In this document: positions 1,931-31,898 of the stretch, piece after piece
Numbering within the stretch: the first letter of the stretch is position 1
How the letters are laid out: every line of letters starts with the position of its first letter
Translations under genes and position numbers: made by a program
The notes under the pieces: generated by a model
The model's input: only the letters and a program-made list of their open reading frames with translations
Databases searched by the model: none
What the model was told of the DNA's origin: nothing
NCBI GenBank assembly: GCA_951406725.2
Contig: OX597829.1
Coordinates: 16,058,001-16,122,000 of the forward strand
Length of the DNA: 64,000 nt
From: Octopus vulgaris
Taxonomy: Eukaryota
Reading direction: 5' to 3'

Positions 1931-3026
1931 TATATTATACAATACAAATAAAGTAATATTTTTTTTTATGTAGAATTTCCATTAGAACAGTAGAAATACT
2001 AGGTAAATTACCCACACAAAGCAGAAAAATTTGTCAACAAACGGCCATGGGATGTGGGTCCATACCCCATGGCTGGTCGTTGAGAATTTTTTCAACTTTG
2101 TATGGATAACTTACCCAGTGTTTCCTCTGTACTAACAGCAATTCTGCATTTGAAAAACATAATTTTATTTGTATCATATAATACACATTTCAACACTTAA
2201 AAAAACAAATGTTAGTTTGTTCATATTTATATATATATATATATATGAAGTATTATTGACAGAAGTAGTATTAGTACCAATGAGCAATTTTTATATCCAA
2301 CTAAACATGAACGTATTATAAGAATGCCACAACCACAGATGCGGACTGGTGTTGGTAAAATTTGAGGTGAACTGCTGACCACACATTCATGTATGTATGG
2401 GTGTCTAGAGGTCGACTTTGCCTTTCATCCTTTCGGGGTCGATAAATAAAGTACCAGTTACGCACTGGGGTCGATTTAATCGATTTAACCCCTTTGTCTG
2501 TCTTTGTTTGTCCCCTCTATGTTTAGCCCCTTGTGGGCAATAAAGAAATATATATGCATGTATGCTTTAATTACTCTTTTTCATTCTATCTTTTATGCCA
2601 CAATTAATTTTTTTAAAAATTATAACGAGATAGTCGTGTCAATCAACTCATTTGACCAATCTGTGTGAAATACATGAATTTATTTTCCACTGGATGAAGA
2701 TAAAATTCCTGCAAGAGACAGATATAGTTGATTAGCTCAAACATCCATTCTCAATCAATATTCTGCCATTTCCTATTTTGCTATCTGCCATCATTTATTC
2801 CAAATTGAGGGGAAAAAAAAAAGAAAATGTTGAAGTCAAACCCTAATGAGGTCGAAATTAAAATATGCAAAACTGGAAGCATGACAAAACATTGAATTAG
2901 TCTCAACGTGTGTGTGTGTGATTGGATGTGCATCATGCCATAGAAAGCTGTTTTGAAGGTTTCATTCTAATATAAACATGAAAATGTATATGTAGAGATA
3001 TATGTCTATCAATCTATCTTTCTATT

Positions 3027-3498
<472 letters not shown>

Positions 3499-7820: not shown

Positions 7821-8857
7821 TCAGGTGCACTACTACTCATCAGAAAAAGTAACCAAAACTGCACAAACATTGCCTAAAATATGTACAAGAAGTGAACTGT
7901 GAATAAGTCACTAAAAAAAAAAAGGAAGAAGTAGCAGGGGTGGGGGCATCAGGTGTAGTGTTGATGAATTTCAAGAAGAATGGAAGTTTTGAAGGATGTA
8001 TTGTCTTAACAGCTAACAACTGATGCAGGTAGTTTATTCCATACTTCAGCAATTCTGAGCATGAAAGAATGTTTTCAAAAGCATGTCCATTAGTGTTAGA
8101 CATATGGAATTCAAAAAGGTGTCCAAAATTGTTGCCGTTACGTTCTGAGTTCAAATTCCACCGAGCTTGACTTTACCTTTCATCCTTTCGGGGTTGATTA
8201 AATAAGTACCAGTTACGCACTGGGGTCGATATAATTGACTTAATCCGTTTGTCTGTCCTTGTTTGTCCTCTCTGTGTTTAGCCCGTTGTGGGTAGTAAAG
8301 AAATAGGTATTTTGTCTGCCGTTAAGTTCTGAGTTCAAATTCCGCCGAGGCCGACTTTGCCTTTCATCCTTTCGGGGTCGATTAACTATGTACCAGTTAC
8401 ACACAGGGGTCGATATAATCGACTTAATCCGTTTGTCTGTCCTTTTTTGTTCTCTCTGTGTTTAGCCCCTTGTGGGTCGTAAAGAAATAGGTATTTATAT
8501 ACTGATTTTAAATCCTACCAAATTTGCCTTATATTGTATTTGTCTAGGATCACAAGTATGTACCGGTTATTTACTGGTGTTTATCTTATTGTCTGTGTCC
8601 TTTCCATTAAAATGTAGCATTTGCTCTATGTTAAAAATACTATCTCTGTACATGTAGTGCAGTGGACAAAATGCTTTGTATTTAACTTAAAAGTTAGGTC
8701 AATTTTCATTCCAGGTTCAAATCCTACTGAGGCCTATTTCTTTTTTTTTTTTTTTTTTTACCAGGGGCAGGTAGAGGATAAAAAATACCATTCATGTACT
8801 GGTACCTATTTAATAAGTTTGGGTTTCCTCCAACAAAAATTGATGTTTTTGTGACTT

Positions 8858-9148
8858 GGGCATATGGCATAGTGGTTAAAAGCAATGGCTGCTAACCCCA
8901 AGATTCCAAGTCCAATTCCAGGCAGTGACCTGAATAATCATAATAATAATAATAACAACAATAACAACAACAACATCGAAAAAATACTTTATGAATGAGA
9001 ACCCAGGTTTGAAATTTCCCCAAGACACCTGATGAAGGCTGGAGGGTATATCAGCTGAAATGTTGTGTTAACAACAAACAAGATGAGGACAAATATCCGT
9101 TGAATGTAAATAATGTACATAATTCCTCATCTCTTAAATATAGAACTA
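8858..9148 (+). mobile_element. tRNA-Ser(GCT)-like head + (AAT/AAC)n + degenerate minimal hammerhead: SINE/retrozyme-like element
   Basis: A box TGGCATAGTGG at 8865-8875, anticodon loop CT-GCT-AA, B-box-like GTCCAATTCC at 8910-8919, hammerhead motif at 9024-9069. Confidence 0.65.
9024..9069 (+). ncRNA. Minimal type-I hammerhead ribozyme motif (Penelope-type), slightly decayed
   Basis: Stem I GACAC/GTGTT; core CTGATGA 9029-9035 plus an extra A; stem II GGCTG/CAGCT; GAAA 9057-9060; TGTT (expected CGTT, consistent with CpG decay). Confidence 0.7.
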
Positions 9149-9982
9149 TACTACACCATGCCACAATAAACCACATGGTACTGCACCACAAACTACTAAA
9201 TAACACACCTGTTCTACTCACACATCTTTTGGTGTAGAGGCAGGTATGTATGTTGAATGAAATATTGGCATTTCTCCATGGCTAACAACTGCTTTTGTGT
9301 AAAGAGAGAGAGAGAGAGAGACTAGCCAGGCTCGAGTCAGTTCGTCTGACTTGTTCACTGTCTTTATTTCCATGTAGTATCCTTGGTTACAACCTCAAGT
9401 GGTTAGCTAAAAATACCCAGAAATATCATTAATAGTTGGGTATCATCAATACAGCTTACAATGACATGTAACAGACATCTTCAATAAGAGCTTCAAATGC
9501 TTATTTTTTTTAATAGAGACCAACTACTCAAAGTTGGAAGCTGTATAATGGTTACGCTCACTTTATTGTCTAGACTGCAAAGACAATAAATAAATTCACT
9601 AAAATATTTGGGTTTATTTTTTTTATTATTTAATTCTTTATTGCCCACAAGGGGCTAAACATAGAGGGGACAAAGAAGGACAGACAAACGGATTAAGTCG
9701 ATTACATCGACCCCAGTGCGTAACTGGTACTTATTTAATCGATCCCGGAAGGATGAAACGCAATGTTGACCTCGGAGGAATTTGAACTCAGAACATAGCA
9801 GCAGACAAAATACGTATTTCTTTACTATCCACAAGGGCCTAAACATAGAGGGGACAAACAAGAACAGACATAAGTATTAAGTCGATTACAACGTCCCCAG
9901 TGCGTAACTGGTACTTATTTAATCAACCCTGAAAGGATCAAATTTAGTAGTTATTTATTCACATAAGTAAAAATTAGTCATA

Positions 9983-15175: not shown

Positions 15176-16503
15176 GACCAAGACCTTTGGAAATATGCTG
15201 TGCGTGAGAAGACCCGACAGGACAAGTGAGACCATAACCCATGGCCTTTACCTGGGATGTAGCCAGTCCACTTATGCATACCTTTCCTCCTTGGGACACA
15301 AAACTCTGCTTGTGAAGACCTGTTAAGGCAAGTGAAATCGAAATTGATAAAAAAATCAATGGAAATTGTAGTTGTGATACCAGTGACGGTGGCACGTAAG
15401 AGAACCATCCAAACGTAGCCATTGCCAGCGCCGCCTCGACTGGCCTCTGTGCCGGTGGCATGTAAAAAGCACCAACCGATTGTGGCCGTTGCCAGCCTCA
15501 CCTGGCACATAAAAAGCACCCACTACACTCACGGAGTGGTTAGCTTTAGGAAGGGCATCCAGCTGTAGGAACACTGCCAGATCAGACTGGGTCTGGTGCA
15601 GCCTCCTGGCTTCCCAGACCCCAGTCGAACCGTCCAACCGATGCTAGCATGGAAAACGGACGTTAAACGATGATGATGATGATGTGTGGTAACGTTACAC
15701 AGCTAATAGCAATGAAAGAACTCTAACAAATCTATCTTATTGGTTGATTGACTAAGCAATTAACGAAACAGTCAATTAGTTAATTAGTTACATGATTAAC
15801 CAAATTGACTGATAAATATAAAAGAATTGGAAAAGAACCCTTGTGCGTGTGTGTGTGTGTGTGTTTATTATTGACATAGTGACCCTCCTGAGATACAACA
15901 ACAAAAAAAAATTAACAAACTGATATAGAATACAAAAATTTATCTTGTCTTTCTCATTGATGAAAAAATATGCAAATGCTATTTACTTGAATCAGACAAG
16001 CAAAATAAATCTGCACTCCGTAAATGGCAGACAGAATTTATATCTTTGGTGAGCACTTTGTTTATATGGTCACAGGTATATTATATTCTCTTTACTCTTT
16101 TACTTGTTTCAGTCATTTGACTGCTGCCATGCTGGAGCACTGCCTTTAGTCAAGCAAATCGACCCCCAGGACTTATTCTTTGTAAGCTTTGTACTTATTC
16201 TATCGGTCTCATTTGCCGAACTGCTAAGTTAGGGGGTGGTAAACACACCACCATCGGTTGTCAAGCGATGTTGGAGGGACAAACACAGACACACAAAAAT
16301 ATACAGACACATACATATATACATATAGAGAGAGAGAGAGACGACAGGCTTCTTTCAGTTTCCATCTACCAAATCCACTCACAAGGCCTTGGTCAGCCCG
16401 AGGCTATAGTAGAAGACACTTGCCCAAGGTGTCACGCAGTGGAACTGAACCAAGAACTATGTGGTTGGTAAGCAAGCTGTTTACCACACAGTCACTCCTG
16501 CAC

Positions 16504-16534
<31 letters not shown>

Positions 16535-18318
16535 ACAGGCTTCTTTCAGTTTCTGTCTACAAAATCCACTCACAAGGCTTTGGTCGGCCTGAGGCTATAG
16601 TAGAAGACACTTGCCCAAGGTGCCACGCAGTGGGACTGAACCCAGAACCATGTGGTTGGTAAGTAAACTGCTACCACACAGCCACTCCTGCACCTATGTA
16701 ATATTTTATATGCAAGGCAGCAATCTTTAGCACACCAGACAAAATGCTTAGCAGCATTTCATCCATCTTTTCCATTCTGAGTTCAAATCCCACTAAGGTT
16801 GACTTTGCCTTTCATCTTTTCAGGGTCGATAAAATAAGTACCAGTTGAGCACTGTGGTTCGATATAATCAACTCAGCCCTCTACTGAATATGTGGGCCTT
16901 TTGCCAGAATTTAAAACCAGTATTTTATATGCAAGGGAGAAAGCTGGCAGAATTGTTAGCAACCCGGGCAAAATGCTTAACATTCATTTAGTCCATCTTT
17001 ATCTTCTGCATTCAAATTCCATCAGTTTTGGGGTCAATAAAATCAGTACCTATTTCTATTTCTTTACTACCCACAGAAAGGACAAACAAGAACAGACAAA
17101 CGGATTAAGTCGATTATATCGATCCCAGTGCGTAACTGGTACTTATTTAATCGACCCCGAAAGGATGAAAGGCAAAGTCGACCTCAGCAGAATTTGAACT
17201 CAGAACGTAGCGGCAGACGAAATACCGCTAAGTATTTCACCCAGCATGCTAGCGTTTCTGCCAGCTCGCCGCCTTAATAAAATCAGTACCAGTTGAGCAC
17301 TATTGGCCAATATAATCGACTTAGGTATCGAGTACGAGTGCGTGTGCCGGCCGGTCGGTCAGCGCACAAATGCGATCTCTGCTGTTCCAAGTTAGTTGCA
17401 AAGAAGTTCCTTGAAATTGCTGGCCTTGGGCCAAAATTTAAAACCAATATTTTATATGTAAATTATTGATTATGTTGTCAATAATAGTTTATAATTACAA
17501 GACAAATTTGTAAGACAGAGTGAACCAATATTCTAGATTAAGTCTACATGATATGGATAGCAGAAACTGGTACTATGTCATACCTTAACTTGCATTTTGC
17601 TAGAAATACAATATCCGAAATAAATTCAAATGTTCTCACAAACGAGAATACTAAAAAAGGACCGACCACTCTCAAAAATTAAGTGAAAAAAACTGGAAAA
17701 ATAATCCAGAATCCTTGTCCGGTACCTGATCAATCCCAATGGTAGTCATGGAATGTGAAGGTGAGTGTGCGGGCCATGTTTGTAAGATCATAATACTTCA
17801 TGGTGGCACGTAAAAAGCACCCACTACACTCTTGGAGTGGTTGGCATTAGGTAGGGCATCCAGTTGTAGAAACTCTGCCAAATCAAGATTAGAGCCTGAT
17901 GCAGCCATCTGGTTCACCAGCCCTCAGTCAAAATCGTCCAACCATGCTAGCAAACGATGATGATGATGATGAATCCAGAATCCTTGTCCAGTACTGGATC
18001 AATCCCATAATCTAATCAGTTTGTGCCAGTCATAAGGCCAAACATTCCTGAAAGTTTCATCTAAATCCATCCAGCGGTTCTTGAGATATCTTATCCATGG
18101 ATAGACAAGCAAACAAACATGACCGAAAACAATACCAGCGATAGCGGCAGCAGTGATAAGGATCATGATGATGATGATGGTGATGGTCTTCATGTTGATG
18201 GTGATGATGGTTAATGAAATCAGTGAGATATGTTGTTGTTGTTGTAGTTATAATTTTGTTATTGTTATATTCTTAGTTCACTAATCTGACGATTCTCATT
18301 ATCCTCATTATTTCCCAG

Positions 18319-31101: not shown

Positions 31102-31898
31102 GCAACATTTATGTCTGGTACATCTGGTATGTGCAACATATATTCTGGTACATCTGGTATGTGCAACATATATGTCTGGTACATCTGGTATGTGCAACAT
31201 ATATATCTGGTACATCTGGTATGTGCAACATATGTTTGGTACATCTGGTATGTGCAACATCTATGTCTGGTACATCTGGTATGTGCAACATATATGTTGG
31301 TACATCTGGTATGTGCAACATATATGTCTGGTATATCTGGTATGTGCAACATATATGTCTGGTACATCTGGTATGTGCAACATATATGTCTGGTATATCT
31401 GGTATGTGCAACATATATGTCTGGTACATCTGGTATGTGCAACATATATGTCTGGTATATCTGGTATATGCAACATATATGTCTGGTACATCTGGTATGT
31501 GCAACATATATGTCTGGTATATCTGGTATGTGCAACATCTATGTCTGGTACATCTGGTATGTGCAACATATGTCTGGTATATCTGGTATGTGCAACATAT
31601 ATGTCTGGTACATCTGGTATGTGCAACATATATGTCTGGTACATCTGGTATGTGCAACATATGTTTGGTACATCTGGTATGTGCAACATATATGTACATC
31701 TGGTATGTGCAACATATATGTCTGGTACATCTGGTATGTGCAACATATATGTCTGGTATATCTGGTATGTGCAACATATATGTCTGGTACATCTGGTATG
31801 TGCAACATATATGTCTGGTACATCTGGTATGTGCAACATATATGTCTGGTACATCTGGTATGTGCAACATATATGTCTGGTACATCTGGTATGTGCAA
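31102..31898. repeat. 31-bp minisatellite, about 26 copies
   Basis: Unit ATATGTCTGGTACATCTGGTATGTGCAACAT, head-to-tail, with C/T and short-indel variants. Confidence 0.97.

Follow-up and report, generated by a model that had tools for sequence, protein, structure and literature searches.

A Penelope/Poseidon pseudo-LTR of Octopus vulgaris with an internal hammerhead and a tRNA-like head that is likely a Pol III promoter

We analysed a 64,000-nucleotide stretch of the Octopus vulgaris genome, referred to here as the window (contig OX597829.1 of assembly GCA_951406725.2, forward strand, positions 16,058,001 to 16,122,000). A short repeat on the plus strand at 8857..9150 aligns to positions 4-296 of its family consensus and is the only copy of that family within the 64-kb window. 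The repeat is not an independent SINE but a solo pseudo-LTR, and the retrotransposon it comes from is an autonomous Penelope/Poseidon element. Family-consensus positions are given below as u numbers, with u5 corresponding to window position 8858. The window copy is a single arm without an inverted partner, no target duplication is seen in its flanks, and its 3' end falls at about 9147-9150. It opens with a tRNA-like head of class I size (8858..8931), which has a disrupted acceptor stem and is missing the first ~5 bases of the usual family start. An A box was placed at 8865..8875 by sequence and motif score, and a B box lies at 8909..8919, decayed at two positions in this copy and intact in the consensus. 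The head is followed by an (AAT/AAC)n tract (8933..8973) that varies in length among copies, and then by the first ~52 codons of the Penelope ORF (8995..9150). The 835-amino-acid consensus ORF begins here, with its ATG at 8995, and the window copy carries a CpG-decay stop in this ORF start at 9010-9012. Within these codons lies a minimal type I hammerhead (9024..9069) with a predicted cut after 9064, and the copy ends in a Penelope "tail" (9124..9150). The preliminary description of this DNA had reported a tRNA-like head, an AAT/AAC spacer and a hammerhead-like motif, all of which are present in this order between 8858 and 9069.

Elsewhere the window contains a fragment of a non-LTR reverse transcriptase frame on the minus strand (292-849), interrupted by an (AGAT)n tract, and a minisatellite at 31102-31898 with 26 copies of a 31-base unit (93% matches). 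Tandem pairs at 8129-8496 and 16344-16711, with units of 184 and 191 bases, look like other common SINEs of the genome.

The hammerhead has a 5-bp stem I, an unpaired A followed by a 6-bp stem II, and a palindromic stem III stub. Together with the core boxes and an NUH cleavage site, these are the features of a minimal type I hammerhead, and the same layout is found in Penelope relatives. Stems I and II form in a folded 48-mer, and folding of 9015-9080 alone gives no hammerhead fold (z -0.23). The preliminary description had attributed two defects in the core to C-to-T changes at CpG and had predicted a consensus reading CAGCC-GAAAC-GTT. Both points are borne out: among 107 arms unselected for the core, position 9056 is C in 77 and T in 25, and position 9061 is C in 83 and T in 21. 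A minority variant with a 3-base loss at the cut site occurs in 24 of 171 scorable arms and is unlinked to subfamily markers, so we read it as recurrent slippage rather than a lineage. Minimal hammerheads of metazoan Penelope-like elements (PLEs) are described as cleaving poorly, and as dimers (PMC4209133), and hammerhead mutants of PAc, from Anolis carolinensis, are reported still to insert in vitro (PMC11167929). The octopus hammerhead probably works only as a dimer and probably leaves the copied RNA uncut.

A search of the 2.8-Gb genome gave 3,916 candidates, of which 40 were scored and 30 copies fetched; the 30 have a common start and a common end. An exact search for the 35-base intact core finds 2,155 occurrences in the genome, against zero for a reversed control. 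As the intact core is present in 7 of the 107 unselected arms, this corresponds to some 33,000 arms genome-wide (17,000-81,000). Whether head and hammerhead travel together had been left as a check by the preliminary description; they do, with the repeat body lying within ~630 bases of the head in 26 of 30 head-only matches, one further match (L113) also having a body, and fixed ends. The other three of these 30 head matches (L100, L103 and L109) have the head and AAT tract with no body downstream, and L100 belongs to an inverted pair. The genome also contains several other repeats with a hammerhead core and different stems (L130, L131, L132, L134, L136 and L137), some of them lying downstream of different GIY-YIG ORFs.

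When intact-core copies were sampled in order of position, several proved to run upstream of the head into shared coding sequence. The 296 bases of the short element are the pseudo-LTR of an autonomous Penelope/Poseidon retrotransposon, whose unit is 2,673 bases long and reads head, (AAT)n, ATG, hammerhead in the first codons, 835-amino-acid ORF, stop, ~25 bases, and next head. An identical repeat thus flanks the ORF on both sides and contains both the ORF start and the hammerhead, with the ATG inside the repeat and the frame reading through the ribozyme. The preliminary description had suggested looking for autonomous Penelope elements that share the 3' part, and this is such an element. Of 30 ORF-end loci, 25 have the head directly after the ORF (21 of 26 once segmental duplicates are merged), and in 16 of 30 ORF-start loci the 3' end of the repeat continues straight into the ORF. 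No ORF-start locus extends past the head start, and two stop there. One locus, L304, is a complete repeat-ORF-repeat copy that starts at the head, and the two longest elements (L257/L304 and L251) both begin at the head.

The consensus ORF has a Pfam RVT_1 match and encodes a PLE-type reverse transcriptase. It is 37% identical over 808 amino acids to an 836-amino-acid Anolis protein (P0057) that likely belongs to the PAc family. Its C-terminal piece aligns with the GIY-YIG domain of relatives, with the motif Y-K-G, and has no Pfam match of its own. The N-terminus is 39% identical to a second relative, P0004, across the hammerhead, and this relative retains the hammerhead-encoded peptide. No second Poseidon family was seen in the genome, all 30 loci fetched from 150 Poseidon-type reverse transcriptase matches belonging to the pseudo-LTR's own family. 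No intact ORF was found among the 150 matches listed, where the longest open frame is 569 amino acids, and copies of the family diverge by 4-5% outside CpG; the family therefore looks past its peak. A search of viral contigs found nothing. Assembled contigs of four runs that differ in organism code cover 28-29 of the 30 bins into which the full element was divided, the coverage carrying no information on ends or strand.

A genome search with the Pfam GIY-YIG model recovered mostly another PLE type with a 781-amino-acid ORF, which we take to be Neptune-like; none of 30 such loci shares the repeat beyond the AAT tract. As these loci are without the repeat, we used them as controls. This second, young PLE family (L121-L123) has many intact 781-amino-acid ORFs, with reverse transcriptase and GIY-YIG domains by Pfam, and an overlapping upstream frame. 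A pattern search detected no hammerhead core near the GIY-YIG end.

Insertion marks were assessed in 99 fetched intact-core copies, reduced to 97 by removing two segmental duplicates. An inverted arm is present at the 5' junction in 51 of the 97. The 3' ends form two clusters ~27 bases apart, with 36 copies ending at u255-270 (21 exactly at u269) and 54 at u291-305, together 90 of 97; the tail of the window copy lies between these clusters. Reverse transcription would accordingly be expected to start near 9123 and 9148-9150. PLEs are described as inserting with an inverted copy and a 30-40-base tail (PMC8557442), and PAc as having two reverse transcription start sites (PMC11167929). The inverted arms and paired 3' ends of the octopus repeat, with an optional tail of ~30 bases, match these marks. 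Many head-less copies (L156, L161, L162, L167, L205, L211, L215, L216 and L219) start in the AAT tail of other repeats, which suggests that head-less copies target (AAT)n tracts or use microhomology with them. At a further locus (L018, G000:C30:17290900-17294191, minus strand), a full copy precedes five head-less units of ~190-205 bases in head-to-tail order, every one with a hammerhead. We read this as a retrozyme-like array derived from the pseudo-LTR, where cleavage of dimers would be possible.

Short and ORF-linked arms show no sign of separate lineages. Both of two linked subfamilies are represented among the ORF-linked arms (44 compared) as well as the short ones (127), no variant out of 28 common ones is confined to the short arms (lowest P 0.016, uncorrected), and the 4-5% divergence is common to both. 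Given the shared subfamilies and the lack of a private variant, the short copies are the autonomous element's own product and not a separate lineage.

The head is tRNA-related, with A and B boxes, and its source is less clear. The preliminary description had labelled it tRNA-Ser(GCT), a label that does not hold: ACT stands at the anticodon position in 86 of 97 scorable arms, with GCT in only 9, the variable loop is short, and the long variable arm is absent. Compared with 15 genomic tRNAs, a set that included no Asn and no class II Ser gene, the head is identical at no more than 49 of ~74 bases and has no clear isotype. It may resemble tRNA-Asn. The combined A and B box score gives P = 0.005 for the consensus and P = 0.14 for the window copy, using an A-box matrix built from two distinct strings only. 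Rfam and ARAGORN made no tRNA or hammerhead call in the window, in a near-consensus copy or in the metagenomic relative L323.

We next consider where copies begin. The 5' ends of the 97 copies fall at u1-9 in 28, in the head in 17, in the AAT tract in 27, in the body in 16 and upstream in 9 (L163 being assigned to this last class by hand). Of the arms that reach the head start, 28 of 37 stop within 11 bases of it, where 2.0 would be expected (P 2e-28). The pile-up is also present among arms without an inverted partner, 9 of 15 of which stop within the same 11 bases (P 1e-8). Among 84 head arms mapped at base level, fold-backs and ORF-linked arms excluded, 30 ends lie at u-2/u-1 and 8 further out. 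The mode is a G at u-1, 13 bases before the A box, and tRNA-derived SINEs start 13 bases before theirs. Many of the u-2/u-1 arms carry 1-4 extra bases, which in our reading fits self-priming on the self-complementary first 10 bases of the RNA. Rotifer Penelopes are described with palindromic pseudo-LTR starts and fixed repeat boundaries alongside TATA/Inr-type promoters (PMC3846280), which means that the pile-up reveals a defined end of the RNA or a site of fold-back, and not which polymerase was used. The nine upstream-extended copies indicate that some templates start earlier; such copies are expected from truncated full-length templates, and Pol II read-through fits them too.

Pol III stops at T runs, and a unit read by Pol III should therefore lack them. 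The sense strand of the 2,673-base consensus unit contains no TTTT, where 2.9-4.9 are expected (P 0.029 by codon shuffle, 0.0056 by base shuffle and 0.004 with Phe usage freed). Real, decayed copies contain 0.44 TTTT per kb, and the other PLE family of the same genome has 8-9 per ORF. Metagenomic relatives were limited to the best 80 of 513, giving 78 loci; in the 42 of these whose alignment spans 1.2 kb or more, the median is 3.5 TTTT per kb, and two have none. None of 31 control ORF segments is depleted in TTTT (lowest P 0.26), two ~1.1-kb segments with zero having an expectation of about 1. A headless relative, L329, likewise has no TTTT over 2.25 kb of its ORF, although its UTR contains several. 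The octopus unit also lacks GGGG runs.

A parallel is found in a distant relative, L323 (metagenome contig JGI1357J11328_10009043), an intact tandem element whose protein is 38% identical to the octopus ORF. Its order in the 2815-3030 region is stop, A/B-box head, AAT tract, hammerhead and ORF. It has the top A+B score of 34 scanned and the only A/B pair in a UTR upstream of 40 hammerhead sites, and Rfam makes no tRNA call in it. L323, which was chosen after its low TTTT count was seen, has two TTTT and no T5 per 2,791-base unit, with one TTTT in the ORF (P 0.076 and 0.0097).

Taking these observations together, we think it likely that the tRNA-like head of this Penelope/Poseidon pseudo-LTR is a Pol III promoter that sets the 5' end of both the short and the full-length RNAs. 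Pol III would initiate at the G at u-1, 13 bases before the A box. Starting in an upstream repeat, the polymerase would pass through the terminator-free ORF into the next repeat and yield a full-length template, and starting in a downstream or solo repeat it would yield a SINE-like RNA of ~300 bases already holding the protein's binding and priming sites. By analogy with the anole element, the protein would nick AT-rich DNA and prime at two sites separated by ~27 bases, frequently at both ends of the break to give head-to-head arms. The self-complementary first 10 bases of the RNA may let the cDNA fold back, and the hammerhead would be little cleaved in the RNA that is copied. A fuller version is quite possible, and we put it forward tentatively: the whole ~3-kb coding unit would be transcribed by Pol III from a captured tRNA-type promoter, with its terminators purged and its own SINE shed from each repeat, in at least two Penelope families whose proteins are only 38% identical. 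The Pol III reading is favoured by the 5'-end pile-up 13 bases before the A box, the TTTT-free unit and the L323 parallel. An uncapped RNA made by Pol III serves poorly as mRNA, and no early ATG is available other than the one upstream of the hammerhead cut; both count against it, as do the TTTT-free ORF of headless L329, the two TTTT per L323 unit and the absence of GGGG.

The translation problem disappears if use is split, with Pol III making only the short RNA from solo and downstream repeats and Pol II making the mRNA and full-length templates. This division, which for the mRNA is compatible with our preferred explanation, also suits the excess of short over ORF-bearing copies (9 of 97 reach the ORF side). 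It leaves the lack of TTTT across the ORF and the head starts of the two longest elements unexplained, and we consider it rather doubtful as a full account. An ordinary Pol II Penelope is unlikely. Here the tRNA-derived piece would be a passenger in the 3' UTR, and short copies would be 5'-truncated and piled at the palindrome by fold-back. Palindromes are known at inverted junctions (PMC3846280), the D. virilis Penelope promoter is described as Inr/DPE-type (PMC2377424), upstream-extended copies exist, and L329 has a TTTT-free ORF without a head. However, the same G is also where arms end that directly abut flanking DNA or an unrelated arm, that G lies in the 5' arm of the hairpin and not at its base, and both the TTTT loss and the L323 parallel would have to be coincidence.

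Two readings closer to the preliminary description fare worse. It had proposed a Pol III-driven SINE with a tail borrowed from, and mobilised by, Penelope. The dispersed family, the Pol III-type head, the Penelope hammerhead and the mobilisation by Penelope all stand; the borrowing does not, as the head is part of the autonomous pseudo-LTR and no SINE-only lineage is seen among the short copies. An independent, Sm-alpha-like tRNA SINE with its own lineage is therefore very improbable: its layout and fixed ends are SINE-like and solo copies could be re-transcribed, but its head is present in the autonomous element and the short arms have no variant of their own. We regard this reading as largely refuted. 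The candidate retrozyme of the preliminary description, spreading through circular RNA, finds its one favourable locus in the tandem array at L018 and is less probable still. Nearly all copies are monomers or inverted pairs rather than tandems, the head upstream of the cut site is intact, copy ends are unrelated to that site, and the repeat belongs to a coding element rather than being non-coding and without an autonomous body.

Protein-coding retrotransposons are taken to be Pol II users, with SINEs as separate parasites. If our preferred reading is true, a Pol III promoter in Penelope's own repeat blurs this line and amounts to a new way of life for protein-coding Penelope-type elements. It would also show a way in which repeats combining a tRNA part with a hammerhead, Sm-alpha for example, can come about, and would sharpen the question of how an uncapped RNA with a ribozyme in its first codons is translated. 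The promoter, start base and two priming sites are defined, which makes the proposal directly testable. A further consequence would be a warning that the SINE annotation of such genomes includes some Penelope ends.

Our search of the article texts and abstracts available found no Penelope element with a tRNA-derived or Pol III promoter, and the available parts of two octopus repeat papers (PMC13282606, PMC8967140) do not describe the element. The best-characterised relative is PAc (PMC11167929), which shares the ORF size, the domain order, the ORF start overlapping the hammerhead, the two reverse transcription start sites bounding a tail, and inverted and tandem arms. It differs in that the portions of the report available describe no tRNA-like promoter or Pol III transcription, a promoter being assumed within the pseudo-LTR. 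The minimal hammerheads of metazoan PLEs (PMC4209133) share the short stem I, the long stem II with an unpaired base and the palindromic stub, and are likewise mostly single dispersed motifs; the octopus ribozyme, known here from sequence, is itself no different. Animal non-LTR retrozymes (PMC7229834; bioRxiv 10.64898/2026.07.22.740005) are also hammerhead-bearing short repeats related to PLE pseudo-LTRs, but are defined by tandem units, and tRNA, promoter and Pol III appear nowhere in the available text of the latter source. The nearest concept to a Pol III promoter in a terminal repeat is that of the TRIMp3 elements Cassandra, Helenus and Ajax (PMC10886601), which carry a small-RNA-derived Pol III promoter inside the terminal repeat, for which SINE insertion has been proposed as the origin. 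TRIMp3 are non-autonomous LTR elements, whereas the octopus repeat is a pseudo-LTR before a 2.5-kb ORF. Schistosoma's repeats Sm-alpha and Sj-alpha (PMC6765202, PMC2770079) share the high copy number and the order of a tRNA-related Pol III promoter and then a hammerhead. They differ in being non-coding, often tandem and equipped with canonical, active hammerheads, and no autonomous element with the same head is described in the parts of these sources available. The octopus element behaves as a SINE does, and as Sm-alpha does, yet is not an independent SINE.
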